Shown here in pieces: positions 11,828-42,514 of a stretch of DNA of 64,000 nt (position 1 is its first letter; every line of letters begins with the position of its first letter). The position numbers and the translations under genes are program-made. The notes below the pieces were generated by a model that was given only the letters and a program-made list of their open reading frames with translations, had not been told where the DNA came from and ran no database searches. Location of the stretch: positions 188,594 to 252,593 of the forward strand of contig SCUL01000002.1 in assembly GCA_004297205.1 (NCBI GenBank). Reading direction: 5' to 3'. Source of the stretch: Patescibacteria group bacterium (GTDB taxonomy: Bacteria > Patescibacteriota > Patescibacteriia > 2-12-FULL-57-11).

Positions 11828-13425
<1,598 letters not shown>

Positions 13426-19937: not shown

Positions 19938-20630
19938 CTACTTCCCGAATTTCCGGGTGCGGTTGGCGTACTCCGCGAGCGCCGCGTCCAAATCCTGTTC
20001 GGAGAAATCCGGCCAGAGCGTCGGGGTGAAGTAAAACTCGCTGTAGGCCGCGCCCCACAACAGGAAGCCGGACAGGCGCTTCTGGTCCGCCGTGCGGATA
20101 ATCATGTCCGGGTCCGGCGTCTCCGGCTCGTACAAGAAGTTTCGGAAAGACTCCTCGGTCAGCGACTCCGGCGCGGCGCCTGCGGCAATCGCCTTCTTGG
20201 CTGCGTCAACAATCTCGGCCCGGCCGCCGTAGTTCATGGCGAGCCGCAGCGTGATCTTGTCGTTCTTGGCAGTGCGCGCTTCGGCGGCGTCGATGGCTCG
20301 CACGATGGACGGCGCCAGCCGTTCGCGTCGGCCGATGATCTTGAGCCGGATGCCGCGCTTGTCGAACTCCCCCACCTCGCGGGTCAAGGCGCCTTCGAGC
20401 AGGTCCATCAGATAGGCGACCTCTTCGGGTGGCCGGTCCCAGTTCTCCGTGGAAAAAACGAAGGCCGTGATGACCGGTATGCGGCGGGCGATGCACCAGT
20501 CGCCGAACTCCTTGAGCCGGTCGTAGCCGCGGCGGTGACCTTCCAAGGTCGGCAGCCCCCGGGCGCGGGCCCAGGTGCGGTTGCCGTCCAGAATGATGCC
20601 GAGGTGGGTAAGCGGTGCGGGGCTTGGCAT
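19938..20630 (-). CDS. uppS: isoprenyl transferase (undecaprenyl diphosphate synthase)
   Basis: HLGIILDGNRTWA, FSTENWDRP and RTADQKRLSGFLLWGAAYSEFYF are canonical cis-prenyltransferase motifs. Confidence 0.9.
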   Translation of the reverse strand: MPSPAPLTHLGIILDGNRTWARARGLPTLEGHRRGYDRLKEFGDWCIARRIPVITAFVFSTENWDRPPEEVAYLMDLLEGALTREVGEFDKRGIRLKIIGRRERLAPSIVRAIDAAEARTAKNDKITLRLAMNYGGRAEIVDAAKKAIAAGAAPESLTEESFRNFLYEPETPDPDMIIRTADQKRLSGFLLWGAAYSEFYFTPTLWPDFSEQDLDAALAEYANRTRKFGK

Positions 20631-20673
20631 AGGCGGAAAGGCATATTATACTCACCCCGATCAGAAATCGAGT

Positions 20674-20746
<73 letters not shown>

Positions 20747-20765
20747 CTCGGCAGCTGATCAGCAA

Positions 20766-20792
20766 AACCCGCCATCTGGCGGGTTTTTGTTA
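20766..20792 (+). terminator. intrinsic terminator downstream of tRNA-Pro
   Basis: CCCGCC-ATCT-GGCGGG hairpin followed by TTTTTGTT. Confidence 0.6.
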
Positions 20793-20799
20793 TCATAAG
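20766..20799. repeat. direct repeat, left copy (tRNA-Pro terminator region), bounding low-GC islet 1
   Basis: AACCCGCCATCTGGCGGGTTTTTGTTATCATAAG matches AACCCGCCGTACGGCGGGCTTTGTGTTATGATCG at about 22671..22704 at roughly 80% identity. Confidence 0.5.
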
Positions 20800-22670
20800 G
20801 GCGTATGCCCAAGACAATAAGCGGCGATGCGTGAGAGCTCCCTCAAAAGCCGGCCGTTCTGCTGGCGCTGATCGTTGCCGTCCGGCGGCCGGACATCTCA
20901 ATGATACATGATCTAAACGTGCTGTAAGCTCGTCATATACAGACGCTTTACATACTCTGAGAACATGTACGTGATGCCTTCCGGTTTCCTACGTTCTCCA
21001 ATATTCGTGATTGGTGGATAACCGCTATGCGCATAGACCGCCAGCCGCGGAGCAACAGATTCCGGCACAACGCGCCGGAATTCAGCGTAGACGCGAGACG
21101 CATGTGCCGAGTTAGCAGTGACAAGAACGTTCAGCGATCTCCCTTTTATTTTTGCCAGCGCTTCGAGACGTCTTGCGACGAAACGAGCATTCCCTTCCGT
21201 GTCTACGGATTGCTCGTCGGGAATTAAAATATCGAACGGAACAACCGGAGGGAAATCTCCCAACGGCTTAAGCCCGGGCATTCCTTTGAATTTTTGATCG
21301 TATGTGTCAACCAACAGAGCAGCGATGGTTTCATCCGCCTCGCTAAACTGTGCCCGAGCCCCGCCATCCTCTTTGACGTCATGGGGTTGCTGCTTCCCCG
21401 CCGGAATTGCAAAGGCTTCAGGAAACGCATTCAGTGGTTCGCGAGCAAAATAGCCCTGGAGTCCGCCCTCATAGGACGCAAGAACGACGACAGCATCGAC
21501 GCTCCCCCACTTCTCTTTGATGTCTTCAAGTGAGTTCGCCTTCCCGGGGTGATTCTCGGGAAGCGATAAGTTTTCCATTGAACGTTCAAGAAGATCGCTC
21601 AGTTTTATATTTTCTTTCTCTGACGGATGAGCACCGTAGAGTTCGTCGAGTTCTTTGTACATCGCAACCCGTTCTTTGTTGTGAACAGCGTTATCAAGAA
21701 TCTTTGCAGAAAGTTCTCGGGCTCGATCCTGGTCGGCCGGAGAAAGCGATGCATTGAGTTTCTCAATGACAAAGGCAGCAAAAATATCCGACACGGAAAG
21801 TCGGCTCGGCCGCTCCGGATATGCCAAACTGTTTTTCGGATGATGAAATTTTTCTTCTTTCAGCAACAGACCGAGGTCTCTTGCCTCCGGAAAGAGTGAT
21901 TCGTAATCAATAGGAGCACCGCCATTCAAAGCATTGAAAATCGCACCGAAATCCGGATCTCTTATAGAGAGGCTGTAATCGGCCCAATCTCTTTTGTTTT
22001 TGACGACGCCGGCTTGATCGAGCGCCGGCCCCACCCTTTGCCAAAAACCGCTCTCCCGTAAGAGATCTGAAAATGTTTCAAACCGAAAACCGTATTTTTC
22101 AATATATGCATCGCGCTGATCGGCCGGATTGACGTGATCAATGTATGTGAGTTTGCAGATCGGCCTCTGATGAGGCACATCGACCACTGTGTCAAAACGA
22201 TCGTCAATAACCTTGCGACACCACTCCTGTTTTTCCTCACGAGCATCGGGGCCGAACTTTTTTAAAATACTTTCCGCTTCACGATTTGCCACTTCATCTT
22301 CCTGATCCCTTTCAAGACGCTCGATGAGGGGCTTGATCGTTCCAAGAAGCGAATCAAGAGATTCAAGTTGTAATGCAAGGGTCGCTTCGTCGGAAGTCTC
22401 GTCAAAAAAAATTTCCGCCCGGACTGAAGCGTTTTCCACTATCTTTTGAAGTTCTTGAGACGGGCGCTCTCTCATGGCTTTCCCGCCAATTGCTGCTTCC
22501 GCGCCAGAAGCTGCTCGCGACGAAGAAGAACGTACTCCTGCAATTTTTTTATTTTTTTGAGTGTATCTTTTTTCTGTGGTTTCGCCATAATGCCGTATAC
22601 GAGATAGCGCTTTCAACAAAAAACATCTTACATTGAGAGTGCTTCGCGTTCAAGACAGAGAAATCACCCG
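20800..22670. mobile_element. putative integrated single-gene islet (low-GC, no integrase) next to tRNA-Pro
   Basis: GC drops to about 45-50% across the cargo ORF versus about 65-70% in the flanks. It abuts a tRNA and is bounded by the imperfect direct repeats described above. Confidence 0.4.
20913..22619 (-). CDS. hypothetical protein (568 aa) with C-terminal DUF218/YdcF(ElyC/SanA)-like domain; cargo of low-GC islet 1
   Basis: A long ORF in an AT-richer segment. The C-terminal region ..DAVVVLASYEGG....LNVLVTANSAHASRVYAEF.. resembles the DUF218 'LVTSxxHMxRA' core. The N-terminal ~380 aa are unrecognised. Confidence 0.55.
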   Translation of the reverse strand: MLKALSRIRHYGETTEKRYTQKNKKIAGVRSSSSRAASGAEAAIGGKAMRERPSQELQKIVENASVRAEIFFDETSDEATLALQLESLDSLLGTIKPLIERLERDQEDEVANREAESILKKFGPDAREEKQEWCRKVIDDRFDTVVDVPHQRPICKLTYIDHVNPADQRDAYIEKYGFRFETFSDLLRESGFWQRVGPALDQAGVVKNKRDWADYSLSIRDPDFGAIFNALNGGAPIDYESLFPEARDLGLLLKEEKFHHPKNSLAYPERPSRLSVSDIFAAFVIEKLNASLSPADQDRARELSAKILDNAVHNKERVAMYKELDELYGAHPSEKENIKLSDLLERSMENLSLPENHPGKANSLEDIKEKWGSVDAVVVLASYEGGLQGYFAREPLNAFPEAFAIPAGKQQPHDVKEDGGARAQFSEADETIAALLVDTYDQKFKGMPGLKPLGDFPPVVPFDILIPDEQSVDTEGNARFVARRLEALAKIKGRSLNVLVTANSAHASRVYAEFRRVVPESVAPRLAVYAHSGYPPITNIGERRKPEGITYMFSEYVKRLYMTSLQHV

Positions 22671-22704
22671 AACCCGCCGTACGGCGGGCTTTGTGTTATG
22701 ATCG
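22671..22704. repeat. direct repeat, right copy bounding islet 1
   Basis: See the left copy. It includes a hairpin CCCGCCG-TA-CGGCGGG that looks like a degenerate copy of the tRNA-Pro terminator. Confidence 0.5.
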
Positions 22705-22806
22705 CGAGGTTCGACCCCAAGCTCCTGGTCTGCGCCTGCCGAGCATTGACGATTGCAAAAACCCTTACTACAGCGTATAGTACCGACGTCATTTTTCTTC
22801 ACCCGC

Positions 22807-23184
22807 ATGAAATTCCCCGTTCTCATCGCCCTGCTCGTGGTCCTCGCCGCCGGCGGTATCGGTGGCGGCATCTGGTACACCAACACCCAGCCCGGCGCGC
22901 TGGACGGTTTTGCGTCCTGCTTGGGCGAGAAGGGCGCCAAGTTTTACGGCGCCTTCTGGTGCCCGCATTGCGCCAACCAGAAGAAGCTGTTCGGCAAATC
23001 CGCCAAAAAGCTCCCTTACATCGAGTGCGGCGTCGCCGGCAACACCAGCGCCCAGACGCAGGTCTGCACCGATGCCGAGGTCAAAGGCTACCCGACCTGG
23101 GTCTTCGCCGACGCTTCCCGGCTGAGCGGGGAAATTCCCCTCCAGACGCTCGCCGAAAAGACGGGCTGCGCGCTCCCTTCCTGA
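22807..23184 (+). CDS. thioredoxin-fold thiol-disulfide oxidoreductase (CPHC active site), membrane-anchored
   Basis: ORF 22753..23184, with the start taken at the ATG at 22807 (MKFPVLIALLVVLAAG...). Active site FWCPHCANQK. Typical partner of bacterial VKOR. Confidence 0.7.
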   Translation: MKFPVLIALLVVLAAGGIGGGIWYTNTQPGALDGFASCLGEKGAKFYGAFWCPHCANQKKLFGKSAKKLPYIECGVAGNTSAQTQVCTDAEVKGYPTWVFADASRLSGEIPLQTLAEKTGCALPS

Positions 23185-23185
23185 C

Positions 23186-23626
23186 ATGAAAAAGATCGCC
23201 GCCGCAAATACCGCCATCACCGGCATCGGCACCGCCAACGCCGGCTACGCCCTCTGGCAGCACTACGCGCCGGCGGGTTCGGCGTTCTGCAACCTCTCCG
23301 CCACGTTTTCCTGCGACATTGTCAATAAAAGCCCGTTTTCTGAATTCATGGGCGTTCCAGTGGCCCTCATCGGCATCGTTGGCAACATCGCTTTGCTGGC
23401 AGCGGGCTTGTGGCTGTTGCGCCATCCGCGCAACGCCGCCGTGCTCTACCTGGCGCTGGCGCTCGGCGCGCTGGGATTCTCGCTGTACCTCACGGGCATC
23501 GAATTCTTCCTGCTCGGGGCCTTCTGCATCGTCTGCCTGTTCTCCCAGGGCATGACGCTCACCATCGCCGCGCTGGCCGTCCTTGCCTGGCGCAAGAGCC
23601 GCACGCCTGCTCCCGTCGCCGCCTGA
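23186..23626 (+). CDS. vitamin K epoxide reductase (VKOR) family protein
   Basis: Four or five TM helices; a loop Cys pair (FCNLSATFSCD) and a TM CxxC (FCIVCLF), characteristic of VKOR/DsbB-like quinone-linked oxidases. It starts 1 nt after the Trx-like gene's stop. Confidence 0.75.
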   Translation: MKKIAAANTAITGIGTANAGYALWQHYAPAGSAFCNLSATFSCDIVNKSPFSEFMGVPVALIGIVGNIALLAAGLWLLRHPRNAAVLYLALALGALGFSLYLTGIEFFLLGAFCIVCLFSQGMTLTIAALAVLAWRKSRTPAPVAA

Positions 23627-23627
23627 C

Positions 23628-24029
23628 ATGGAACACGGTCCCATCCCCGCCGCGCGCATCGCGGAAACAGCCGCCGTGCTGACGGAACCCGGCAAGCACG
23701 TGAAGCTTCTGGCAGGTGATTTTTCCGAACGCTACGCCGTGGCCGTGATCGTCTTGAACGACGTGATGCCCGAAGCAGAAATCCATGAAGCCGCGGCGGA
23801 CGTCTTCACGGTCGTCGAGGGCGGCGTCACCTTCACCCTCGGCGGCGCCCCGATCAACGACCGCATCGCCAAGCCGGGTGAACACAAGGCCGAACGGATC
23901 GAGGGCGGCAAAACGATCCGCGCCAATGTCGGCGACACCGTTTCCATCCCCCGCGGCGTCCCCCACCAGATGGACGCCCGCGGCGGCCGCGTCGTCATGC
24001 TGATCACCAAAGTGAACGACCTTTCCTGA
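23628..24029 (+). CDS. cupin domain protein
   Basis: ORF 23583..24029, with the start taken at the ATG at 23628, overlapping the VKOR stop (TGACATGG). Cupin-like motifs (VFTVVEGGVTFTLGG ... GDTVSIPRGVPHQ). Confidence 0.55.
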   Translation: MEHGPIPAARIAETAAVLTEPGKHVKLLAGDFSERYAVAVIVLNDVMPEAEIHEAAADVFTVVEGGVTFTLGGAPINDRIAKPGEHKAERIEGGKTIRANVGDTVSIPRGVPHQMDARGGRVVMLITKVNDLS

Positions 24030-24049
24030 ATCCGGGCGGTCCGCTATAC

Positions 24050-24245
24050 TGTCCGCAGCTCTCTCGACAACCGAATCCATCCAGAGCGACTGGGATCCGC
24101 AAGGAACGGGAACCGACCCGTCAGACCAGTCCGGCAACCTGTTTCGACAAGGTGCTCCGTTCGGCCTCGTTCCGAGGAAAGATGGGATATCGGCGCTCCG
24201 CCCATCCTTTCCGGATGGGCGTTTGCGTTCACATCAGGAGGAAAG
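24050..24245 (+). promoter_or_regulatory. structured 5' leader of metF: putative riboswitch (S-box/SAM-I-like elements) with terminator/antiterminator
   Basis: -10-like TATACT at about 24053. The ~180-nt leader contains CCGGCAACC and AAGGUGCU, which resemble conserved SAM-I core elements. Mutually exclusive pairings GGAAAGATGGG/CCCATCCTTTCC (antiterminator) and CCCATCC-tttccg-GATGGG+CGTTTGCGTT (terminator) lie just upstream of a strong SD (AGGAGGAAAG-ATG). Confidence 0.4.
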
Positions 24246-25124
24246 ATGTTCGCAACTCGCTTGTGGTCCTCGGCGGACGCGCCGCCGACGTTCTCCATGG
24301 AGGTCTTCCCGCCGCGGCCGGAACACGCCGCCGCGTTCCGCCAGACCATCACGGCGCTCGCCTCCTGCCGACCGGCGTTCTTCTCGCTCACCTGCGGGAA
24401 CGAAGCCGACCGGCGGCCCGCGACGCTGGATTGGGCGGCGCGCATCCAGAGGGAGACCGACACGCCGGTCATCGCGCACCTGACCTGCCTCGGGCAGTCC
24501 CGGGACGCGCTTCGGCGCGAAGTCGAGACATTGCTGGACGCCGGCGTCGCCAATATCCTGGCGCTGCGCGGCGACATGCCCCGCACGGGCGCGCCGAGCG
24601 TCGGCTTCCGGCACGCCGCCGAGCTCATCGCGGAGCTGCGCACGCTGCGCCTGCCGTTGTGCATCGGCGCGGCCTGCCACCCGCAGGGCCATCCCGAGGC
24701 GGCAAATGCGGATGCCGATCTGCGGCACCTGCGCGAGAAGGTCGATGCCGGCGCGGACTTCCTGGTGACGCAGGCCATCTTCGACGTCGCGACCTTCACG
24801 GCATTCCTGCGGCGGGCGCGGACGGCCGGTGTCGGCGTCCCCGTCCTACCCGGCATCCTCGTCCCGGCAGGCGCGGCCCAGATCCAGCGTTTCGCGCAGC
24901 GCTGCGGCGTCCGTCTGCCGCGGGGGCTGCCGAGCTGGTTCCGGATTGAAGAAGCGCAAGGAGGTGAGCTGGCGGGGCTCACGCACGCCGCGGAACTCGC
25001 CGTCGCGCTGCCGCGGTGCGGCGCACCGGGGGTCCACCTGTTCACCATGAACCGGGAGGAACCGGCGCAGCGGCTCCACGCCCGCCTCCGCCGCATGACG
25101 GCAGGAACGCGAACGCCCTCCTAG
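24246..25124 (+). CDS. metF: 5,10-methylenetetrahydrofolate reductase
   Basis: MEVFPPR, FFSLTCGN, VIAHLTC and NILALRGD are MTHFR-family hallmarks. Confidence 0.85.
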   Translation: MFATRLWSSADAPPTFSMEVFPPRPEHAAAFRQTITALASCRPAFFSLTCGNEADRRPATLDWAARIQRETDTPVIAHLTCLGQSRDALRREVETLLDAGVANILALRGDMPRTGAPSVGFRHAAELIAELRTLRLPLCIGAACHPQGHPEAANADADLRHLREKVDAGADFLVTQAIFDVATFTAFLRRARTAGVGVPVLPGILVPAGAAQIQRFAQRCGVRLPRGLPSWFRIEEAQGGELAGLTHAAELAVALPRCGAPGVHLFTMNREEPAQRLHARLRRMTAGTRTPS

Positions 25125-25156
25125 GCAGGAGGGCGTCTTTTTTTGGATTCCCGCGA

Positions 25157-25717
25157 TTAAGCGTCGTCGTGGCGCACCAAGACGCGGCGATCGAGCAACC
25201 CTTCACGATGCTGCACGGCCCAGGAGGCCGCCGCGTAGCAACCAAAGAACACGCCGGTGAACAGCAGGTCGCCCAGGAGCGTATTGCGGAAAAACGGAAT
25301 GGCCATGGCGTAGGACTCGGCCAGCCCGGCCCAGGTCGGGGCGTACAACGGCGACCACATCCAGACCGCCCAGTTGGTGACCAGGTAGAACAGGACCGAA
25401 CCGGCCAGCGCGATGACGCCGTTGCGACGAGCCAAGGAGCCCAGAGAGCGTCCCTCGAACCGTGCCAGGAGCGCGCCTGCGCCCCACACTGCGGCGTAGA
25501 CCAGCGCGATGCTCGTCGTCATTTGCCACCGGTCGAAGCCGATCACCGCGTCGGCGGCAAAGGAACCGGCCAAGGGCGCGATCCAGCCCCAGCGGCGCGG
25601 CAAGACGGCACCCGCGAACAACATGGCCGCGGCGGTCGGCGCGACGTTCCAGGGGTGGTCGGCGACACGCAGGATGTAGGTGGCGAGCGCCAGGATGACG
25701 GCGACGAGGATGTTCAT
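25157..25717 (-). CDS. integral membrane protein (~6 TM), possibly an ECF-type substrate-capture (S-component-like) protein for a corrinoid
   Basis: ORF trimmed to the ATG at 25717 (MNILVAVILALATYIL...). About 187 aa and hydrophobic throughout. It is last in the nrdJ-cobA-DUF4430 operon. The functional guess comes from context only. Confidence 0.45.
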   Translation of the reverse strand: MNILVAVILALATYILRVADHPWNVAPTAAAMLFAGAVLPRRWGWIAPLAGSFAADAVIGFDRWQMTTSIALVYAAVWGAGALLARFEGRSLGSLARRNGVIALAGSVLFYLVTNWAVWMWSPLYAPTWAGLAESYAMAIPFFRNTLLGDLLFTGVFFGCYAAASWAVQHREGLLDRRVLVRHDDA

Positions 25718-25722
25718 GGCGA

Positions 25723-26166
25723 TCACATCTTCAGGTTGATGAACTTCCACTCGATGACGTCCCCATTTTGAAGCTTGTAGGCGTCCGAGGCGACCTGGCC
25801 CATGCGGTTGTTCTCGTACCACAGCCAGTATTTGCCGTCGGTGCCGCCGGCCATGGAGCCGATCTGGTCGATCAGAATGCCGTACGGGCCGGGCGGCTGG
25901 AATTTGAACGTCAGCCCATCTCCTTCGATGGCCGTCTTGGTGGCGTCAAACAGGGTTTGCCCCTCGGTAAAAGCAACGTTCTCGTACGTTTTGACCGTCC
26001 CATCGCCGTAATCGAACATCAGGGAGACGGACTGCGCAGCCGTCTCGGATGCCGGGGCATTCACAACGGGCCCTTCGACGCGGCTCAGGGCAGGCCCAAA
26101 GCTCCAGCCGAGCAGGAACGACGCGGCGGCAACGACGATGAAGGCGGCGGCAAGTTTGGCTTTCAT
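25723..26166 (-). CDS. DUF4430 domain protein (transcobalamin-like corrinoid-binding fold)
   Basis: ORF trimmed to the ATG at 26166 (MKAKLAAAFIVV..), directly after the cobA stop. Signal anchor; motifs ..LFDATKTA..DQIGSMAGG..GKYWLWYENN..GDVIEWKF are typical of DUF4430. Confidence 0.6.
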   Translation of the reverse strand: MKAKLAAAFIVVAAASFLLGWSFGPALSRVEGPVVNAPASETAAQSVSLMFDYGDGTVKTYENVAFTEGQTLFDATKTAIEGDGLTFKFQPPGPYGILIDQIGSMAGGTDGKYWLWYENNRMGQVASDAYKLQNGDVIEWKFINLKM

Positions 26167-26167
26167 A

Positions 26168-26746
26168 TCAATAATCCAGTCCTTCACGGGCCGAGGCGCC
26201 CTTGTAGAAATAGTGCTTGACGAGCCTCATCTCGGTCACCAGGTCAGCGCGCTCGCGCAGCGCTTCCGAGGCGTCGCGGCCGGTGCAGATTATCTCCACG
26301 TTTGCAGGCCGCGCGTCAAGGGCCGCTAGCACGGGCGCCTCAGGCAGCATGCCCAGCGCCATGGTGCAGTTGATCTCGTCCAAAACGATCAGATCATGCT
26401 CCCCGCTCCGGATGAAGCGCTCCGCTTCGGCCCAGCCGCGGGCCGCTTCGGCCTTGTCCTCGTCGGTCACGCCGAACCGGAAACGACCGGTCACCGGATC
26501 GATCCGGTCGAGCCCGCAGGCCACCAAGGTCAGCGCGCCGTGCATGGGCGTTTGCTGTTCGGCCAACCAGCGCAACAGCGTCCGCTCGCTGTAGTGGGTG
26601 CCGCCCTTGTCGAACCAGACGATGGCCACGCGTTTACCGACGGCGAAGGCGCGGAGTGCCGTGCCCAGCGCAGCCGTGGTCTTGCCTTTGCCGTTGCCGG
26701 TAAAGACCTGAAGTCTCCCCCACTCCTCGGGGGCGCGATTGTTCAT
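26168..26746 (-). CDS. cobA: cob(I)yrinic acid a,c-diamide / cob(I)alamin adenosyltransferase (CobA/BtuR/CobO family)
   Basis: ORF trimmed to the ATG at 26746. P-loop-like VFTGNGKGKTTAALG and the CobA/BtuR family signature (WFDKGG...LVVLDEI). Confidence 0.85.
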   Translation of the reverse strand: MNNRAPEEWGRLQVFTGNGKGKTTAALGTALRAFAVGKRVAIVWFDKGGTHYSERTLLRWLAEQQTPMHGALTLVACGLDRIDPVTGRFRFGVTDEDKAEAARGWAEAERFIRSGEHDLIVLDEINCTMALGMLPEAPVLAALDARPANVEIICTGRDASEALRERADLVTEMRLVKHYFYKGASAREGLDY

Positions 26747-26779
26747 ATTGCTTGTCTGGGCGGACACATTGGTCCGCCC

Positions 26780-27040
26780 CTACACCTGGGTTTCCTCGTC
26801 GCTCACGGCGTGACCGATCAAATCAGGCGCGCCCTCGAAGATGTCCTCTTCCTTCTCTCCCACCGCTTCCTCGCGGTAGTTGCGGATGAGCGTGCGCAAC
26901 GACTCGCGGTCGGCGACGACCGCGGCCAGGGTGTCGAGTTCCTCGTCCGGCGTCTCCGCCAGGATTTCTCCGGCCAGTTCTTCGTCTGCCTTGCCCAAAT
27001 CCAGTTTCTGGATCTGGGCGCGGAGGGTGTCGCGCGTCAT
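26780..27040 (-). CDS. small acidic hypothetical protein (~86 aa)
   Basis: ORF 26780..27064, with the start taken at the ATG at 27040 to avoid overlap with nrdJ. Highly D/E-rich with no recognised domain. It lies between nrdJ and cobA in the same orientation. Confidence 0.4.
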   Translation of the reverse strand: MTRDTLRAQIQKLDLGKADEELAGEILAETPDEELDTLAAVVADRESLRTLIRNYREEAVGEKEEDIFEGAPDLIGHAVSDEETQV

Positions 27041-27041
27041 A

Positions 27042-30215
<3,174 letters not shown>

Positions 30216-30280
30216 ACCCCCCTGCTTGAAGATGGATAAAGCGTAACGCCCTGACTATAACACACTCTGGCTCCTCCGTA

Positions 30281-30329
30281 ACACAAGATATTGTGTGTGG
30301 ATAACCACGTGGACCACAATATGTTGTGT
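30281..30329. promoter_or_regulatory. tandem NrdR boxes upstream of nrdJ
   Basis: ACACAAGATATTGTGT (about 30281-30296) and CCACAATATGTTGTGT (about 30314-30329) match the NrdR palindrome consensus acaCwAtATaTwGtgt. Their centres are about 32 bp apart, as is typical for NrdR operators. Confidence 0.6.
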
Positions 30330-30358
30330 TGTACGACCCTTCCCGCGCGAAAATCCCC

Positions 30359-30934
30359 CTAAAACGGCATGGTCAGGTTCACGGGCGGGCGGCTTTGGGG
30401 AATCTCGATCGTGACCGGCACCACGACCTCCGTCCCCTGCCGGTCCTTGTACTTGAGATGCCGGTACTCCCGCGCGTAGTCGAACAGGTCCTTGGTCACC
30501 TTCACGTCCTGCAGGCAGTACTCGCGCAGCTTGTCGATCTCGCCCTTCTTCCAGTACTCCACGGCCATGAGTCCGGTGCCGCTCTTGCCGATGCCGAGCG
30601 TCCCCTGAGCCACGTCGTCGAGCTTCAGCCGGAAACCGATCTGCTTCTCCAGGATGTACATCAGGTCGATCGCCGGCAGCTTGGTGAGGTCGCCGGGGTA
30701 GTAGCCGTTCAAGACCGGCAGGTCGAAGCCGACGATGTTGTAGCCGATGACGACGCTGGCCTGTTCCATCTTCTTCCAGAGAGCCGGCAAGTCGGCCTCC
30801 AGATACGTCGTATACTGCCCGTCGGCGTAATCGTACGCCCCGACCAGGGATACCTTGAGCAATGACGGGTCGTATTTGCCGACCTCCTGGAAGGTGTTCT
30901 GGGTTTCGATGTCGAAGACGAGCGGGAAGCTCAT
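30359..30934 (-). CDS. DEDDh-type 3'-5' exonuclease domain protein
   Basis: ORF trimmed to the ATG at 30934 (MSFPLVFDIETQN..). Exo I motif FDIET, Exo II YNIVGFDLPVL, Exo III with His (EYCLQDVKVTKDL). Confidence 0.7.
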   Translation of the reverse strand: MSFPLVFDIETQNTFQEVGKYDPSLLKVSLVGAYDYADGQYTTYLEADLPALWKKMEQASVVIGYNIVGFDLPVLNGYYPGDLTKLPAIDLMYILEKQIGFRLKLDDVAQGTLGIGKSGTGLMAVEYWKKGEIDKLREYCLQDVKVTKDLFDYAREYRHLKYKDRQGTEVVVPVTIEIPQSRPPVNLTMPF

Positions 30935-31030
30935 GGGAGTCGGGAAAACCACGGCTATGATACGGCCGACCGCGCGGTCGGGCAACGCTCCATGCTATAC
31001 TTGGAAACGTTCGCTTTTTCACCATTCCCT

Positions 31031-31426
31031 ATGCGCCGTCTCGCCGTTATCCCCACGTTCGCCGCCTTGCTCCTGCTCGGTGCCGGCTGCGCCGCCGCGC
31101 CGTCAAGTGCGCCGGAGTCCGCACCGGCCGCCGTGACGCCGTCGTCCAACCAAGGCATCGTCATCATGGTCGACGAAAACGGCTTTTCCCCGGCGACCAT
31201 CACCGTCCCGGCAGGAACGGAAGTCACCTTCAACAACACCGGGAGCAGTCCGCACCAGCCCGCCTCGGCCGTCCACCCCACGCACCAGCAGCTTCCGGGA
31301 TTCGATGCCCTGCGCGGCCTGCGGCCGGGCGAAAGCTACTCCTACACCTTCACGAAGGTCGGCACCTGGAAATACCACGACCACCTGAACCCGTCGCGGA
31401 CCGGCTCGATCACGGTCACGGAATAA
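31031..31426 (+). CDS. cupredoxin-like (plastocyanin/azurin-type) lipoprotein
   Basis: ORF 30992..31426, with the start taken at the ATG at 31031 (MRRLAVIPTFAALLLLGAGC, a lipobox). C-terminal motifs HQPASAVH...YHDHLNPSRTGSITV resemble type-1 copper ligand spacing (His...Cys/His...His...Met-like). Confidence 0.55.
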   Translation: MRRLAVIPTFAALLLLGAGCAAAPSSAPESAPAAVTPSSNQGIVIMVDENGFSPATITVPAGTEVTFNNTGSSPHQPASAVHPTHQQLPGFDALRGLRPGESYSYTFTKVGTWKYHDHLNPSRTGSITVTE

Positions 31427-31430
31427 CAAC

Positions 31431-31461
31431 AAAAAACCGGCCTGCGAAGGCCGGTTTTCTT
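31431..31461. terminator. bidirectional intrinsic terminator between the cupredoxin gene (+) and murA (-)
   Basis: AAAAAA-CCGGCC-TGCGAA-GGCCGG-TTTTCTT. It has A-tracts on one side and T-tracts on the other. Confidence 0.6.
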
Positions 31462-32716
31462 ATGCCACGCGCGTGATGTCGGCGCCCAGCGCCCGGAGGC
31501 GCTCCTCAATGGCTTCGTAGCCGCGGTCGATTTGGTAGATGTTCTCGATTTTGCTCGTCCCAGTGGCGGCCAAAGCGGCCACGACGAGAGCGAGCCCCGC
31601 CCGGATGTCGGGCGATTCGAGCGTCGTCCCGCGCAGCGGCGTCGGTCCCTGAACGAGGGCCCGGTGCGGATCGCAGAGAATGATCTCGGCGCCCATCTTG
31701 TTGAGTTTCTCCGTGAAGTACAGGCGACCCTCGAAAATCGTCTCGTGGACCATGGAGCTGCCGGTGGCCTGGGTCAGCAGGACCGTGAACGGCGGCTGGA
31801 TGTCCGTCGGGAAACCCGGATACTCGTGGGTCATGAGCGGCTGCGCCTGGAGCTTCTGCCAGGGTTTGACCGCGATGTCGCCGCCGTTGACCGTAAATGG
31901 CACGCCGAGCCGCTGCAAATACTCGAGGGGCACGGAAAGGTGCTCCGGTTTGGTTCCGGTAATCGTCATCTGGCTCTTGGTGGCCGCGGCCAGCGCCAGG
32001 AAACTTCCGGCTTCGATGCGGTCCGGCATGATCTCGGCCGAGCCGCCGGACAGGCGCTCCACGCCCCGGATGCGGATGGTCGGCGTGCCGGCGCCGGAAA
32101 TCTTGGCGCCGCAGGAGTTCAGGAAATCGGCCAGAGCCACCACCTCCGGCTCCATGGCACAGTTTTCCAGGACCGTTTCGCCCGGCACGCGGCTGCCCAA
32201 AATCACCAGCGCTTCAGTCACGGTGTGGCTGACGAAGGGAAAGACGAAGTGGATCGGCGTCAATTTCTTGGAGGAAAAACGAATTTCCTTCTCCCCCTCC
32301 TCGACCGCAGCGCCAAACGCCTTGTAGCCGGCCAAAAACAGGTCGATCGGCCGACGGCCGATGGCGCAGCCGCCCGGGAACGGCAGCGTGGCGGCGCCGC
32401 GGGTCACGAGCAAAGAGGCCACGAGCAGCGTGGAAACCCGGATTTTGGGGGCCAGCACCTCGTCGAGCACGTCAGTCGAGACGGAGCGCGGGTCAATGAT
32501 ATACTGGTGCGGATCCGGTTCCGTGACCGTGGCACCCAACCCCTTGAGGATTTCCACCATGCGCCGGACATCCTCGATCCGGGGCACGTTGGTCAGCGTC
32601 ACCGGCCCGTCCATCAGCAAGGACGCCGCCAGAAATTTGAGGGCGGCGTTCTTGGCTCCGGAAACGGCGATCGTGCCCGACAGCGGACGGCCGCCGGTGA
32701 TCTCGAAATGCGCCAT
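31460..32716 (-). CDS. murA: UDP-N-acetylglucosamine 1-carboxyvinyltransferase
   Basis: ORF trimmed to the ATG at 32716 (MAHFEITGGRPLSGTIAVSGAKNAALKF...). EPSP-synthase-fold MurA signatures throughout; active-site Cys region (PGGCAIG). Confidence 0.9.
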   Translation of the reverse strand: MAHFEITGGRPLSGTIAVSGAKNAALKFLAASLLMDGPVTLTNVPRIEDVRRMVEILKGLGATVTEPDPHQYIIDPRSVSTDVLDEVLAPKIRVSTLLVASLLVTRGAATLPFPGGCAIGRRPIDLFLAGYKAFGAAVEEGEKEIRFSSKKLTPIHFVFPFVSHTVTEALVILGSRVPGETVLENCAMEPEVVALADFLNSCGAKISGAGTPTIRIRGVERLSGGSAEIMPDRIEAGSFLALAAATKSQMTITGTKPEHLSVPLEYLQRLGVPFTVNGGDIAVKPWQKLQAQPLMTHEYPGFPTDIQPPFTVLLTQATGSSMVHETIFEGRLYFTEKLNKMGAEIILCDPHRALVQGPTPLRGTTLESPDIRAGLALVVAALAATGTSKIENIYQIDRGYEAIEERLRALGADITRVA

Positions 32717-32760
32717 AATGGACGGGAATATAGCAGATTCGGACGAGGATTTCAAGTCCC

Positions 32761-34080
32761 ATGAAAAACCGCACCCAAACCCTGATTACCGTGATCCTGA
32801 TGCTGCTCTTCCTGACCAGCGTTCCTTTGGTGCTCCTGAACACCGCCGGCTACCGCATCAATATCCGGACTCGGCAGTTGGAACGCACTGGCATCCTAAT
32901 CCTCCGTTCAGCGCCTCCGGACGCCCATATCCTGCTGGACGGCGTGCTTCAGGACGAGCGGACGCCGGCCCGCCTCTCCCAGCTCCTGCCCCGCGAATAC
33001 CGCGTCACCGCGGAACGCGAGGGCTACCGCCCCTGGAGCAAGCTGCTGACCGTGGAAAGCCAGCGCTCGACCTTTGCCGAAGACATCATCCTGTTCCCGG
33101 ACCAGCTGCCGGTGCGCGTCGCGGACGCCGCGGCGCGCAGCCTGGCCGTGGCCGTTGACGGCACCCTGGTCTACGACGATACGACGGGATCAACCACGGA
33201 AATCCACTTCCTCCGGCCGAACGGCGAGGAAACCACGGTCACGCGCGTCAGCCACCGCAGCGGCGGCGATCAATGGTTGCGACTGCGATGGAGCCCGGAC
33301 GGACGAACGGTACTTGCGTTCGGCGACATCGCGCCGACCCTGGTCAGTCTCGACGGCGCGCAGCGCGTCCTGACAGTGCCCGGACCGCTCTCCGAGGCCG
33401 TCTGGAGCGGCCAGGACCTCTATCTGCTGGCCGACGGGCGGGCGCTCGTCCAATCCGAAGACGGCGCCACCCGGCCTGTCACCACGTCAACGGCCGCCCT
33501 GTTGTGGCGTCAGGAAGGGCTGACGTACGTCGGCCGCGCCGCCACCGGCACAATCAGCGTGGACGTGCTCGCGGCCAACGGCAGCATCCTGCGCTCCGCG
33601 CTGCTGCGGCTGCCGGGAAACGTCGGGTGGTACCGCTTCCTCCCCTCCCCGAACGGCCTGCTCACGCTGCTAGGTGACGGGCGGGTGCGGGTCTTTGACG
33701 CAGAAAGCGGTGCGACGCGCATCGACCGGCCGGCCTACGACGCCGTGTGGCGCCTGGACGGCACGCCGGAACTGCTGCTGTCGACCAATTTCGAAATCTG
33801 GACGGTCAACCCGGATGACCAGGCGCAGCTGCTGACCCGGCTCGGCGCGCCGATCCGGGGTGCCGCCTGGTATCCCGGCGGCACCCACGTCCTGTACGCC
33901 TCCGGAGACGCGGTCGCGGCCATTGAGCGCGACGACCGCGGCGGCCGCATCATCACTCCGCTCTTCACGCTGCCCGATCTGGGCGCCTTCATCGTGGACG
34001 AAAAAGGAGCCGCGGTCTTTGCGGCCGCCGCTCCTGCCGGCAAACCGGGCATCTTCCGCTATCCGATTGTGATCCCTTAA
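32761..34080 (+). CDS. PEGA domain protein with C-terminal beta-propeller (TolB-like) repeats
   Basis: N-terminal TM; PEGA-like segment (SAPPDAHILLDGV..YRVTAEREGYRPW); repeated WD/TolB-like blades (DG..L.Y...DG..). Confidence 0.6.
   Translation: MKNRTQTLITVILMLLFLTSVPLVLLNTAGYRINIRTRQLERTGILILRSAPPDAHILLDGVLQDERTPARLSQLLPREYRVTAEREGYRPWSKLLTVESQRSTFAEDIILFPDQLPVRVADAAARSLAVAVDGTLVYDDTTGSTTEIHFLRPNGEETTVTRVSHRSGGDQWLRLRWSPDGRTVLAFGDIAPTLVSLDGAQRVLTVPGPLSEAVWSGQDLYLLADGRALVQSEDGATRPVTTSTAALLWRQEGLTYVGRAATGTISVDVLAANGSILRSALLRLPGNVGWYRFLPSPNGLLTLLGDGRVRVFDAESGATRIDRPAYDAVWRLDGTPELLLSTNFEIWTVNPDDQAQLLTRLGAPIRGAAWYPGGTHVLYASGDAVAAIERDDRGGRIITPLFTLPDLGAFIVDEKGAAVFAAAAPAGKPGIFRYPIVIP
34028..34080. 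repeat. direct repeat, left copy (the 3' end of the PEGA/propeller gene), bounding low-GC islet 2
   Basis: The 53 bp CCGCTCCTGCCGGCAAACCGGGCATCTTCCGCTATCCGATTGTGATCCCTTAA matches 35327..35379 at about 80% identity. It encodes ..APAGKPGIFRYPIVIP*. Confidence 0.6.
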
Positions 34081-34081
34081 T

Positions 34082-35296
34082 TTAATTCGTGATAAATTTT
34101 TGAAAACGGTCGGTACTTGAGTCGTATTCTACGGTTATCTCCGTATCTTCGTATTGTCCACTCGATGTGCTGTACCGCAGAAGAGCTATATTCACGATAC
34201 GCCCATCAAAAGCCCGTACCTCTGAAGAGTACTCGGGGTACTGCTCAGGAGACTTCAAGAAATCGGAAAAAATAGATTCCTGGGCGATATCTCGCCGCAC
34301 TTCGTGAATTCCTGCCCGGTCTTCTCGAATCAATCTGTTAGGATATTCGATGCGGTACGCAATCCTTGGGACAAATGATGCATGCCCATTTTGCGCAATT
34401 GCGGCATCGTACCCCGGCAGACGGAAGGTAATCCTGCTTCCGTCGAAGGACGTCTCCGGGAATGGGAAAAGGTCCAAACCACCTCCGTACACGGGCACAC
34501 ACTCCACACCTATCGCCGTTGGCAGCGAATACGTCTGCCCGTTAATCAAGATTGCCGAAACAGTGGAAGTCGCCTTAGAAGAATCGGTCACCTCATCGCG
34601 AACCTGTTGACAATTTGATTCTTGAACGATCTGGGCCTGCATCGCGACCGTCCCAATTCGCGCGTCCAAAGAGGTCCCAGAGCGGTTGAAATCTCCGACC
34701 TCGGTCTCGGCGAGAATCGCACCGCTGGCGTCGAAAAAATAGCTATGGATAGTACGGACTGCTTCACACGGACTCGTTAGTAAATGAGCAGCGACACCAT
34801 CGCTCCACTCGTCTAGAGAGAGATACACACACTGGTTGCTTGCCGCTACGTCAAGCACCCTGCGCAAGCTTCGCCCATTCAAATCAGCCAGCCATACAGT
34901 TGTAAAATCTTCCGGTTTTGACCTGACCAGGAGCACGACCGAATCAAGTGTCAACTGCTTCGCATCCTGGTACTGATCTTGTGAGAACGGGGCAAAAGCA
35001 ATCAGATCCTCGCGTGTTGAGGTCGCCAGCCCGACCAGGGCCGTCGAAGTCCGTTCAGATTCTTCCAATATAGTTCCCTTCTTGGGTTCGATGTTTGGAG
35101 AGGGTGATTGGGCACTCTGCAATGCACGAAGGTCCTGTTCTTTCTTTTGAATGATGCTCCTCAACATCGAAAGATCCGACGATGATTGAACAGACATCCC
35201 GGACAGAGTGACGGTCGCTGATGCAAGAACGAAAAAAACTAAAACAAGGAAAGCTTTTGCATTTCTTCCAAATGTATTCATGCAAAAAATCGTCAC
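34082..35296 (-). CDS. hypothetical secreted protein (404 aa), cargo of low-GC islet 2
   Basis: Signal peptide (AFLVLVFFVLASATVTLSG). GC is about 45-50% versus about 68% in the flanks. No recognised domain. Confidence 0.6.
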   Translation of the reverse strand: MTIFCMNTFGRNAKAFLVLVFFVLASATVTLSGMSVQSSSDLSMLRSIIQKKEQDLRALQSAQSPSPNIEPKKGTILEESERTSTALVGLATSTREDLIAFAPFSQDQYQDAKQLTLDSVVLLVRSKPEDFTTVWLADLNGRSLRRVLDVAASNQCVYLSLDEWSDGVAAHLLTSPCEAVRTIHSYFFDASGAILAETEVGDFNRSGTSLDARIGTVAMQAQIVQESNCQQVRDEVTDSSKATSTVSAILINGQTYSLPTAIGVECVPVYGGGLDLFPFPETSFDGSRITFRLPGYDAAIAQNGHASFVPRIAYRIEYPNRLIREDRAGIHEVRRDIAQESIFSDFLKSPEQYPEYSSEVRAFDGRIVNIALLRYSTSSGQYEDTEITVEYDSSTDRFQKFITN

Positions 35297-35326
35297 CCGA
35301 ATCTGGAATCCATTCTACCACGAACC

Positions 35327-35379
35327 CCGCTCCCGCCGGAAAAACCGGCATTTTCCGGTATCCGATTATTGTCCCGTAA
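35327..35379. repeat. direct repeat, right copy: a displaced, still in-frame copy of the PEGA/propeller gene's 3' end
   Basis: CCGCTCCCGCCGGAAAAACCGGCATTTTCCGGTATCCGATTATTGTCCCGTAA translates in one frame to PAPAGKTGIFRYPIIVP*. This shares 15 of 17 residues, plus the stop codon, with the C-terminus of the intact gene. Confidence 0.6.
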
Positions 35380-35384
35380 TAGAC

Positions 35385-35535
35385 TTCCCCATCGCCTTCT
35401 TCGCAAGAAGGGGCAGCTCTTGGTCATTGCGAGCGGGAGCGAAGCAATCTCGTGTAGGAGATTGCTTCGTCGCTCACTGCCGTTCGCTCCTCGCAATGAC
35501 CAGGTACACTCCCTCTTGCGAAGAGGGAGACGGAG
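35385..35535. repeat. ~150-bp composite palindromic (MITE-like/REP-like) element
   Basis: The left arm ..CCTTCTTCGCAAGAAGG..GGTCATTGCGAG..AGCGAA..GCAATCTC and the right arm GAGATTGC..TTCGCT..CTCGCAATGACC..CTCCCTCTTGCGAAGAGGGAG are reverse complements around the centre GTGTAG. Each end carries a small CTTCGCAAG/CTTGCGAAG hairpin. It lies between the islet-2 right repeat and the 3' end of rmlA. Confidence 0.45.
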
Positions 35536-35544
35536 GGAGTCTTC

Positions 35545-36621
35545 CTAGATTTCGACGCGCGCGTTATCGCCAATGATGAACTTGTAGCCGTGCGGGTGGG
35601 TGCTTTGCTTTGAGGTGACGCAGGCGTCCTTGCCGATCAGCGAATCCACGATGCGGGCGTGGCAGTCGACGGTGACGTTGTCGAAGATGATGCAATGCTC
35701 GAGTTCCGTGTTGCGGATGACCGAGCCGTTGCCGATGGCCGTGTACGGCCCGATGTAGCTGGCTTCCACCGTCACGTTCTCGCCGATCGAGACCGGCCCG
35801 CGGACGAGCACCCCCGGACCGATCTTCGAACCTTTCCCGATGTGCACCTTGCCCTGGAGTATTGCCGTGGGGTCGATCTGACCCTCGCGCGTGGCCTCGC
35901 CCGGGGTCATCTCGTCCAGAATCAGCTGGTTGCCCTCGAGCAAATCTTCTGGCTTGCCGGTGTCCTTCCACCAGCCGGTGATCTCGGTATGACCGACATT
36001 CTTGGCATTGCGCAGATACCAGTTGTAAATCTCGGAGATTTCATATTCGCCGCGCGCCGACGGCGTGATCGTGTCGTAGGCCTTGAAAAACTCGTTGTTG
36101 AACAGGTACAGACCGGTCACGGCGTAGTCTGATTTGGGCACGGCCGGTTTTTCTTCGTACCGGACGATCTTGCCGTCGACGAATTCCGGCACGCCGAAGC
36201 GCCGCGGGTCCGGGACTTTCGCGATCGTCATGAGCGCATCATGGCCGCCGTTTTTGAACTGTTCCACCAGATTGCGGATGTTACCGAGGACGACGTTGTC
36301 GGACAGGTAGAACAGGAAGGGGCTGTCGCCGATCCAGGCCTGGGCCTGTTTGGGCACGTTGGCGATCCCGAGCGGCCCGCCCTGCTGCTCAAAAAAGTGG
36401 ATCTTGGCGCCCCAGCGGCTGCCGTCGCCGATCACCTTCTGGAGTTCGGTCTCGCCCGGGTTGGTGTTGATGGCGATGTCCGTGATCCCCGCATCCACCA
36501 CCTTTTCGATGGCATGGAAAATCATCGGCTTGTTGGCAAGCGGGATGAGGTGCTTGTTCCAGGTGTGGGTGATGGGGCGCAGGCGCGTGGCGCGCCCGCC
36601 GCCCGTCAACACGGCTTTCAT
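35545..36621 (-). CDS. rmlA: glucose-1-phosphate thymidylyltransferase (long form with C-terminal left-handed beta-helix)
   Basis: N-terminus LTGGGRATRLRPITHTWNKHLIPLA (sugar nucleotidyltransferase motif G-x-G-T-R-L); C-terminal hexapeptide repeats. Confidence 0.8.
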   Translation of the reverse strand: MKAVLTGGGRATRLRPITHTWNKHLIPLANKPMIFHAIEKVVDAGITDIAINTNPGETELQKVIGDGSRWGAKIHFFEQQGGPLGIANVPKQAQAWIGDSPFLFYLSDNVVLGNIRNLVEQFKNGGHDALMTIAKVPDPRRFGVPEFVDGKIVRYEEKPAVPKSDYAVTGLYLFNNEFFKAYDTITPSARGEYEISEIYNWYLRNAKNVGHTEITGWWKDTGKPEDLLEGNQLILDEMTPGEATREGQIDPTAILQGKVHIGKGSKIGPGVLVRGPVSIGENVTVEASYIGPYTAIGNGSVIRNTELEHCIIFDNVTVDCHARIVDSLIGKDACVTSKQSTHPHGYKFIIGDNARVEI

Positions 36622-41947: not shown

Positions 41948-42510
41948 AGGATATCGGTGAGGTGAGGCTTGGCAAGCGCCCAGGCAACGATGGTCATGCC
42001 ATCCCAAATCTCGCCAGAAGCGATTTTCTCCTCCAGCGCGGCTGGCGTCAATGCGACGACCTCGAACTCTTCTTCCGGATCAGGCGTCGCAGATTCCTGA
42101 GTGGGTCGCCGCGCCAGAAAGACGTGGGCGTTCTCGTTCACAAACCCGTTGCAGGGATGATAGACACCGATGGGTGTCAGTTCGCCAGTCACTCCACATT
42201 CCTCGGCAAGCTCGCGGCCTGCGGCGACAACCGGATCATCAATGGTCACACGACCGTCCGGATGGCGATGGCGCACGTTCCCGCACGGGAATTCCAAACT
42301 TTCCCGGTTGCCGAGATAGCGATATTGGTTCACCAGAAGCAGCTTCCCGTCGTCGGTGACCGGAACGATCATCGACGAACCCGGAGAATCCAGATAGTAA
42401 TAATCTCCCTCGCGACCGTCGCCGAAGTCGAAACGATCGTGCTTGTACTCAATCCAGGGGCTTTCATGGATCGTCTCCTCGGAAATTTTCTTCCAGTGCC
42501 TCAAGGCCAT
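41944..42510 (-). CDS. NUDIX hydrolase (ADP-ribose/nucleotide-sugar pyrophosphatase-like)
   Basis: ORF trimmed to the ATG at 42510. Nudix box GNRESLEFPCGNV...AAGRELAEECGVTG. Confidence 0.75.
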   Translation of the reverse strand: MALRHWKKISEETIHESPWIEYKHDRFDFGDGREGDYYYLDSPGSSMIVPVTDDGKLLLVNQYRYLGNRESLEFPCGNVRHRHPDGRVTIDDPVVAAGRELAEECGVTGELTPIGVYHPCNGFVNENAHVFLARRPTQESATPDPEEEFEVVALTPAALEEKIASGEIWDGMTIVAWALAKPHLTDIL

Positions 42511-42514
42511 GCGT

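Follow-up and report, generated by a model that had tools for sequence, protein, structure and literature searches.

Two compact, GC-poor islets in a Patescibacterial genome

We analysed a 64,000-nt stretch of contig SCUL01000002.1 (the window) from a Patescibacteria group bacterium, an ultra-small groundwater genome of the candidate phyla radiation (CPR) of ~0.86 Mb; the genomes nearest to the window are Uhrbacteria-like and Magasanikbacteria-like. Two short segments stand out within it. Islet 1 occupies ~20.76–22.70 kb (1.9 kb), just downstream of a tRNA-Pro gene, and islet 2 occupies ~34.03–35.38 kb (1.3 kb), at the 3′ end of a gene for a PEGA-domain membrane protein. Each carries one large minus-strand gene, encoding proteins of 520 aa (cargo 1) and 399 aa (cargo 2), and each is bounded by two similar sequences in direct orientation.

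The two islets are foreign in composition, as an earlier, preliminary description of the locus had claimed. Overall window GC is 0.64, and the longest and deepest GC troughs lie at 20698–22896 (GC 0.51) and 33911–35588 (GC 0.52). The GC content at third codon positions (GC3) is 0.48 for cargo 1 and 0.52 for cargo 2, compared to 0.83–0.88 for host genes, a gap of ~0.35. Relative synonymous codon usage (RSCU) correlates with that of the pooled host genes at 0.17 for cargo 1 and 0.01 for cargo 2, compared to 0.85–0.98 for host genes among themselves. GC3-based gene calling returned a few other window genes with moderately low values (0.64–0.72) and none comparable to the islets, which are the only strongly atypical DNA of the 64-kb window; the 11 kb separating them are ordinary host DNA.

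Neither islet contains a recombinase, as previously claimed: none was found among its open reading frames (ORFs) or when the cargos were scanned against Pfam, PHROGs, PADLOC and NCBIfam, and the same ORF and library scans returned no integration, excision or transfer genes inside the islets. Among the ~50 window genes scanned with Pfam (64 kb of the ~0.86-Mb genome), no family match to an integrase, transposase or other recombinase was obtained, and the cognate integrase that the preliminary description had envisaged elsewhere in the genome was not found within the 64-kb window.

Islet 2 lies between two versions of the PEGA gene end

The host target of islet 2 is the gene encoding the PEGA-domain membrane protein (32761–34080, plus strand; Pfam PEGA 29.9 bits), which has orthologs in two relatives, L006 and L007. 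The left repeat, DR2-L (34028–34081, plus strand), holds the working last 16 codons and stop of this gene, APAGKPGIFRYPIVIP. The right repeat, DR2-R (35327–35380, plus strand), is a displaced, non-expressed copy of the same 3′ end that reads in frame as APAGKTGIFRYPIIVP and has kept the stop. Together they form a 54-nt direct repeat with 81% identity and a spacing of 1299 bp (self-BLAST E = 3e-7). The interval is tightly filled: the cargo 2 stop starts 2 nt past the PEGA stop, and 45 nt separate the cargo 2 start from DR2-R.

We found that the 10 nucleotide differences between DR2-L and DR2-R comprise 6.5 synonymous and 3.5 conservative non-synonymous changes, a split that is matched by only 0.2% of random mutation sets (p ~0.002). 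Because frame and stop are kept and the changes are mostly synonymous, the copies look like two alleles of a real gene end, which would have evolved under coding constraint in different lineages rather than arisen by local duplication and then drifted. Their longest identical run is ~13 nt (the GGCATnTTCCGnTATCCGATT region), and neither copy folds with significance (z = +0.4 and -1.4). At its left edge, DR2-R also lacks 1 nt that is present in the copy of a second strain (L003), as expected for a non-functional relic.

Cargo 2 (34082–35281, minus strand) starts with a hydrophobic helix that is followed by an all-beta region, and its AlphaFold2 model (pLDDT 59) has a beta-rich body; we therefore describe it as a predicted membrane-anchored, beta-rich protein. 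Its family numbers 24 representatives among 1.84 billion proteins, none of which, longer members included, contains a Pfam domain. The gene is under purifying selection and maintained, because its dN/dS against the L003 copy (92% nucleotide and 89% amino acid identity) is 0.27. Its place between a surface-protein gene and a polysaccharide cluster makes a role in the cell envelope plausible.

The islet 2 site in related genomes

The PEGA gene and the rmlA-like gene downstream of islet 2 mark a junction that could be located in two relatives. L006, the Patescibacteria metagenome-assembled genome H41-bin083_1 (MurA 93% identical in amino acids, flanks 82–87% nucleotide identical to the window), has both genes arranged as in the window, with a different 346-aa gene of native GC between them (7568–8608) and no repeat of the PEGA end at the junction. 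This gene was rejected as a diverged ortholog of cargo 2: it resembles neither cargo 2 nor any other part of the window, and this ORFan gave no match in Pfam, PHROGs, PADLOC or NCBIfam. In L007, a more distant Uhrbacteria genome (MurA 63%), PEGA and rmlA are convergent, and the junction reads as an empty site because only 64 bp and a bidirectional terminator lie there.

Judged by these comparisons, islet 2 is demonstrably a genuine insertion and not ancestral. The preliminary description had allowed that both cargos might be ancestral, vertically inherited genes; for islet 2 this does not hold, with a different gene at the site in L006 and nothing there in L007. The PEGA/rmlA junction is a three-state hot spot, because the window, L006 and L007 hold three different states. 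A metagenome scan with the PEGA protein returned only 24–42% relatives, too distant for empty-site analysis.

The same islet 2, with the same boundaries and 92% nucleotide identity, is present in another sample, SRR22388055 (the window stems from SRR8426588), on a 1315-nt Logan contig (L003) that runs from within one repeat to within the other. The contig ends overlap by 15 nt, which suggests, under the logic of a k = 31 assembly graph, that this strain holds an exact 45-nt repeat (AACCGCCGCTCCCGCCGGCAAACCTGGCATTTTCCGGTATCCGAT). An excised circle of ~1300 bp (1315 nt minus the 15-nt overlap, compared to the spacing of 1299) is possible but fits less well than the branch points of a 45-nt exact repeat. 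The islet 2 empty site would read from PEGA ...TATCCGATT into ATTGTCCCGTAATAGACTTCC, and the circle junction would read ...CCACGAACC, the repeat and then TTTAATTCGTGATAAA.

Islet 1 lies between two copies of a post-tRNA hairpin

The tRNA-Pro(CGG) gene beside islet 1 (20674–20747, plus strand; ARAGORN, Rfam tRNA 71.8 bits) is intact and lies outside the repeat. DR1-L (20758–20796, plus strand), between tRNA-Pro and the 3′ end of cargo 1, consists of a terminator-like hairpin, AACCCGCCATCTGGCGGGTT, with a T-run and flanks; DR1-R (22663–22702, plus strand) is the same hairpin with compensatory stem changes from A-T to G-C. A gapped local alignment matches 31 of 40 positions (78%) with one gap, a score reached by ~0.1% of random window pairs, and the repeat was missed by an ungapped repeat finder. 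The hairpin core is AACCCGCC-NNNN-GGCGGG, followed by a T-rich tail, and the likeness runs past the stem into both flanks (ATCA..., GTTATSAT). DR1-L folds as DNA with -11.6 kcal/mol (z = -5.3), and in the 64 kb the mismatch-free hairpin motif occurs at the two ends of islet 1 only. DR1-R lies between the divergent promoters of the cargo operon and a thioredoxin-like gene, where a plus-strand terminator terminates nothing.

The islet 1 repeat is a post-tRNA hairpin that starts 11 nt downstream of tRNA-Pro, and not the tRNA 3′ end; ARAGORN, Rfam and alignment found no partial tRNA at the distal end of the islet. The earlier claim that both repeats duplicate the 3′ ends of host features consequently holds for islet 2, with the last 16 codons and stop of PEGA, and has to be withdrawn for islet 1.

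Cargo 1 (20913–22475, minus strand) has a coiled-coil N-terminus and a DUF218-like C-terminal domain below threshold. It overlaps by 4 nt with a 38-codon ORF for a basic, coiled-coil peptide (22472–22588, minus strand; a gene call in L002 and its translation), and a promoter scan places a promoter-like site just upstream of this ORF (22587–22616, minus strand). Islet 1 is a two-gene module, not a single gene. Of the one minus-strand ORF per islet reported before, the minus-strand cargo is found in both islets, and the second, 38-codon ORF of islet 1 is an addition to that picture.

The DUF218-like C-terminus that had been reported for cargo 1 is below the Pfam threshold (23.9 bits, cut-off 27.6), and a homolog with 42% identity gives the match again, likewise C-terminal and in the same place (E = 4e-5 and 3e-4). 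Cargo 1 looks cytoplasmic, with a divergent DUF218-like domain. This homolog is the only one found among 5.8 billion protein clusters. Its locus, L001, is a 37%-GC contig with a similar 44-aa ORF upstream and a methyltransferase gene downstream; there the gene has the composition of its neighbours and lacks flanking repeats. The cargo homologs have no repeats on either side and are placed like any other gene, in contigs of 37% and 48% GC. Scans of both cargos against PADLOC, PHROGs and NCBIfam gave no defence-system or phage-protein matches, a sequence search of the PDB gave nothing usable, and viral contig scans with both cargo proteins and both repeat motifs gave no matches.

The surroundings of tRNA-Pro differ among relatives. 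The tRNA sequence itself is 100% identical across genera, including relative L095 (uppS 77%), where it lies at 9901–9974, is inverted relative to uppS and has four native-GC genes filling the interval; in relatives L098 and L103 it is not beside uppS. Because the tRNA is inverted in L095 with four native genes in the interval, its neighbourhood thus appears to be a rearrangement hot spot. Logan contigs of closer relatives all end inside tRNA-Pro. These breaks likely do not reflect islet variability, because metagenome graphs treat a tRNA that is identical across co-occurring populations as a repeat shared between genomes. The account of islet 1 is moderately supported and thus less secure than that of islet 2, for which support is strong. 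Around the tRNA itself, a 22-nt inverted repeat (GATCAGAAATCGAGTCGGGCTA / TAGCCCGACTCGGCAGCTGATC, within 20659–20760) lengthens the acceptor stem.

The two islets share geometry, not sequence

The preliminary description treated both islets as members of one active, trans-mobilised cassette family. They do agree in geometry, in that the cargo runs convergently towards the target, no recombinase is present and the layout is compact, and both have a GC3 near 0.5. Nucleotide matches between them do not exceed 11 nt, and their proteins are not similar. The best alignment of DR1 with DR2 scores 16, compared to a random mean of 17.6, and a shared core between the repeat pairs was rejected on this basis. 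The repeats also differ in kind, DR1 being a structured intergenic hairpin and DR2 a stretch of coding sequence that does not fold significantly.

A shared donor signature was likewise rejected. The RSCU correlation of cargo with cargo is 0.36; by GC-normalised 4-mers they correlate at 0.45, which does not exceed the values of cargo with host, so that the k-mer and codon comparison proposed earlier as a check does not join the two. A self-BLAST screen of the window and ~100 fetched loci returned islet 2 alone and no third repeat-flanked, GC-depleted segment; the further instances that a family would lead one to expect were absent from both sets. With no shared sequence, repeat core or cargo homology, and weak codon resemblance, the claim of a single family is not upheld.

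The relative L095 holds a separate unit of interest: a single NUDIX gene between the two arms of a 54-nt direct repeat (13475–13528 and 14138–14191, 96% identical) that comprises a promoter and ribosome-binding region. This is one gene bounded by duplicated host sequence, without a GC anomaly.

A proposed mechanism for islet formation

The reading we favour, to which we give about an even chance, is that the islets are two independent horizontal acquisitions by single-crossover integration, which left repeats resembling attL and attR around recombinase-less islets of the cis-mobilizable element (CIME) type. Small foreign DNA would have entered by single-crossover (Campbell-type) recombination, most probably site-specific, with the crossover taking place between a host sequence and its look-alike on the incoming, presumably circular DNA. 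For islet 1, the incoming DNA would have been the 38-codon ORF and the 520-aa gene, and the host site the terminator hairpin just past tRNA-Pro. For islet 2, it would have been the gene for the 399-aa membrane-anchored, beta-rich protein, and the host site the last ~55–60 nt of the PEGA gene. The insert would end up with a diverged copy of the target on either side, the counterparts of attL and attR; in islet 2, one repeat copy would regenerate the full PEGA frame and the other would be stranded downstream.

The features of the repeats bear on the type of recombination. Because the DR2 copies behave as alleles from different lineages, their divergence is as expected for an attB site and an attP mimic. 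An identical run of ~13 nt would not suffice for recombination of the RecA type, which makes a site-specific recombinase the likeliest agent; the recombination mechanism and the identity of the recombinase are here what we infer, as is all that we say on cargo function. Because neither islet encodes a recombinase, the two would be att-flanked, recombinase-less units, which may either have decayed from larger integrative elements or always have relied on a recombinase encoded elsewhere. We lean slightly toward units that were always minimal and dependent in trans, which compactness and the probable exact repeat in L003 favour over decay.

Several observations weigh against this account. Since no recombinase, circular junction or empty-site read was observed, site-specific recombination is read from repeat geometry alone; the recombinase search covered 64 kb of the 856-kb genome. 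The extreme compactness of the islets, with gaps of 2 nt and 45 nt in islet 2, fits the decay of a larger element poorly. Islet 1 is the more exposed of the two: its repeat is short (31/40), of terminator-type hairpin and of modest significance (~1e-3), no empty site was found via uppS homologs, distant relatives being rearranged, and L095, its sole informative relative, has the inverted tRNA and four native genes.

Alternative explanations

An unlikely alternative is homology-facilitated illegitimate recombination, whereby linear DNA from a related strain was anchored in tRNA-Pro or in the PEGA 3′ region and its other end was joined illegitimately just upstream of the recipient's own copy, so that the repeat would be a by-product needing no dedicated recombinase. 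This would account for the missing recombinase, for targets as conserved as a tRNA identical across genera and a PEGA gene whose 3′ 200 nt are better conserved than its middle, for repeat copies that resemble donor and recipient alleles, and for the abrupt start and 1-nt deletion of DR2-R in the window. It requires, however, a donor in which the low-GC cargo already abutted the same gene, which merely moves the original insertion back a step, and it requires the same geometry twice. Nor is an exact 45-nt repeat in L003 expected without gene conversion, and a comparison of PEGA with L006 shows no unusual, divergent donor tract at the 3′ end, where identity over the last 120 nt is 82%, close to the level of MurA. 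For islet 1 only, it is rather unlikely that the hairpins are simply two similar rho-independent terminators, with a foreign two-gene module placed at a rearrangement breakpoint by tRNA-Pro and no att-type duplication. The shortness of the repeat, centred on a GC-stem and T-run, agrees with this explanation, as do the rearrangements around tRNA-Pro, inverted with four other genes in L095 and absent beside uppS in L098 and L103. It is opposed by the restriction of the exact motif to the ends of islet 1, by the likeness beyond the stem on both sides, by the compensatory nature of the stem differences, and by a right copy that has no upstream plus-strand gene to terminate.

We regard as decidedly improbable the explanation that the two islets come from a single family of minimal one-gene cassettes, active now or until recently, which would be mobilised in trans by a recombinase encoded elsewhere and use gene 3′ ends as attachment sites. 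The layout is indeed the same in both, with the target on the plus strand, the cargo on the minus strand, the cargo 3′ end at the left repeat and its 5′ end at the right; a matching orientation in two cases has a 50% chance expectation. Both islets have a GC3 near 0.5, are very compact and lack a recombinase in cis, and the probable exact 45-nt repeat in L003, set against diverged copies in the window, hints at ongoing recombination. Against these stand the absence of common sequence, repeat core and cargo homology, a codon-usage correlation between the cargos of only 0.36 and a 4-mer similarity no greater than that of cargo with host, an intergenic hairpin in one islet and coding sequence in the other, no third instance, no recombinase in 64 kb, and the two genes and own promoter-like site of islet 1. 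Hardly credible, finally, is that both cargos are ancestral genes of odd composition, inherited vertically, with repeats that arose by chance. Cargo 2 is under purifying selection and common to two strains, as such a history would have it; the absence of islet 2 from the conserved site in L006 and L007 largely refutes it for that islet, and the GC3 gap, the extreme rarity of homologs, and the E-value and coding-type substitution pattern of DR2 also speak against it.

Relation to known systems

On the favoured reading of two independent acquisitions, the nearest described counterpart is the CIME, which keeps attL and attR but whose genes for integration and transfer have been lost or are lacking; CIMEs are defined as what integrative and conjugative elements (ICEs) or integrative and mobilizable elements (IMEs) decay into, and they are re-mobilised when a related element integrates alongside (PMC5704250). 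The islets resemble CIMEs in being flanked by att-like repeats, 54 nt at 81% in islet 2 and, more weakly, 40 nt at 78% with the tRNA not included in islet 1, and in having no integration, excision or transfer genes of their own. One example is the CIME that adjoins the 3′ end of the Streptococcus thermophilus gene fda; as in islet 2, a protein-coding gene can serve as target with its 3′ end. They differ in three respects: no ICE, IME or conjugation system is evident in the window, and viral contig scans found no related autonomous element; the host is a Patescibacterium; and at 1.3 and 1.9 kb, with one or two genes, the islets are far smaller, and their compactness does not readily suggest decay from a large element.

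The preliminary description compared the islets to integron cassettes and to tycheposon cargo, and each analogy fails on defining features. Remnants without an intact integrase beside tRNAs are known in tycheposon-shaped islands of Prochlorococcus (bioRxiv 10.1101/2020.12.28.424599). The likeness lies in a streamlined genome, cargo beside a tRNA gene and att-type partial repeats that mark a former integration. Tycheposons, however, encode a recombinase of the tyrosine or large serine type, of which none was found in the islets or the window, and often genes for replication, and their repeats are partial tRNAs, whereas the islet 1 repeat is outside the tRNA and that of islet 2 is at a protein gene. 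We rejected this reading for want of an element-encoded recombinase and a partial tRNA repeat. Integron cassettes share with the islets a size of ~1–2 kb, one or two genes, a sequence resembling a recombination site and the lack of their own recombinase, but the flanking repeats of the islets are copies of host sequence. The cassette reading was rejected because there is no attC-type palindrome and the GTTRRRY core was not seen on reading either repeat. No intI, attI or cassette array was found in the 64-kb window; the islets are isolated, 11 kb apart, and islet 1 has its own promoter-like site.

Two further comparisons concern integrase-less units. Integrative mobile elements exploiting Xer (IMEX) and pdif modules are integrase-less and use the host XerC/D at dif-like sites. 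The islets are similar in that such a unit lies between short recombination sites and is moved by a housekeeping recombinase encoded elsewhere. Unlike these, the islet sites are not at the chromosome dimer-resolution site, and inspection of the repeats, with no lineage dif model applied, recognised no dif-like pair of XerC/XerD half-sites. Islet 1 also recalls insertion sequences of the IS200/IS605 type and palindrome-associated transposable elements (PATEs), as its two ends carry similar sub-terminal hairpins in direct orientation and it lies beside the hairpin-rich tRNA terminator region. In contrast to those elements, neither TnpA nor TnpB was found in the islet or the window, cargo 1 has no relation to either protein, and the ends of islet 2 lack significant hairpins. 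We tentatively dropped the IS605 reading, which allows for TnpA (HUH Y1) or TnpB to be supplied in trans, and we also dropped that of a miniature inverted-repeat transposable element (MITE), which fails a defining feature.

Other features of the window

Upstream of tRNA-Pro lies uppS (19938–20630, minus strand; Pfam). Pfam assigns the genes between the islets, in order, to a thioredoxin-like protein, VKOR, a cupin, MTHFR, cobalamin-related proteins, ribonucleotide reductase (27042–30215, minus strand), an RNase H-like exonuclease, a cupredoxin and MurA. A local GC dip upstream of the ribonucleotide reductase gene contains the palindromic boxes ACACAAGATATTGTGT and CACAATATGTTGTGT (30255–30345), which we take to resemble NrdR operator boxes. 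At the left end of the window, tandem paralogs of a MacB/FtsX-type permease (116–1432 and 1335–2585, minus strand; 47% amino acid identity, with patches of 71–81% nucleotide identity) adjoin an ABC ATPase and an HlyD-like gene; the second copy may be disrupted, because the GC3 filter called no long ORF across it.

Between DR2-R and the rmlA-like nucleotidyltransferase gene (35545–36621, minus strand; Pfam) there is a nested palindromic, MITE-like element of ~160 nt (35381–35542) with a DNA fold of -51.2 kcal/mol (z = -7.8), present as a single copy in the window. It directly fills the space between the two and is probably distinct from the islet, a small element of its own at this intergenic hot spot. 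Palindromes built on the motif GTCATTGCGAGCGGGAGCGAAGCAATC / GTCATTCTGAGCGGAGCGAAGAATC occur at this position, at 54107–54197 of the window and at 2517–2607 of L006. The copy at 54107–54197 is 90% identical to the one in L006, and mobility of these elements is suggested because the latter is at a different genomic position.

Beyond the rmlA-like gene, a long cluster of rhamnose and glycosyltransferase genes extends up to ~63 kb. This envelope-glycan cluster of ~28 kb (35545–63260) holds rmlA/C/D-like genes, several GT2 and GT4 glycosyltransferases, GtrA, a sugar transferase, UDP-glucose dehydrogenase, a PMT_2-like protein and an S8 subtilase with FG-GAP repeats. Some of its members have intermediate GC3 (0.64–0.72), such as 41944–42570, 48047–48823 and 52079–53002, and could be older acquisitions. 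In the Uhrbacteria relative L103, a NotI-like restriction enzyme and a D12-class methyltransferase (11721–13493) lie between genes for a penicillin-binding protein and a Mur ligase, a pair that is absent at the corresponding place in the window.

Implications for gene gain in Patescibacteria

The islets are a further example of a known integration footprint, in an under-studied phylum. They provide two well-delimited cases of recent gene gain in an ultra-small CPR genome, where mechanisms of gene flow are poorly documented. In islet 2, the target gene appears to have had its 3′ end swapped for a look-alike brought by the cargo, and the islet marks the PEGA/rmlA junction, at the edge of the surface-polysaccharide cluster, as a hot spot.

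A more far-reaching idea, which we offer as a long shot, is that Patescibacteria may carry ultra-minimal, integrase-less cassettes of 1.3–1.9 kb whose sole mobility determinant would be 40–60 nt that imitate a terminator or the end of a host gene. Their insertion and excision would fall to a chromosomal recombinase encoded elsewhere, and the target would receive a new stop-codon-proximal end from the cassette. If this were true, the probable exact repeat of L003, compared to the diverged repeat of the window, would represent a recent re-integration. As things stand, the islets are a commonplace footprint of integration, of use chiefly in annotating pangenomes and att sites; should a recombinase that acts on them in trans come to light, they would be among the smallest site-specific cassettes known outside integrons.

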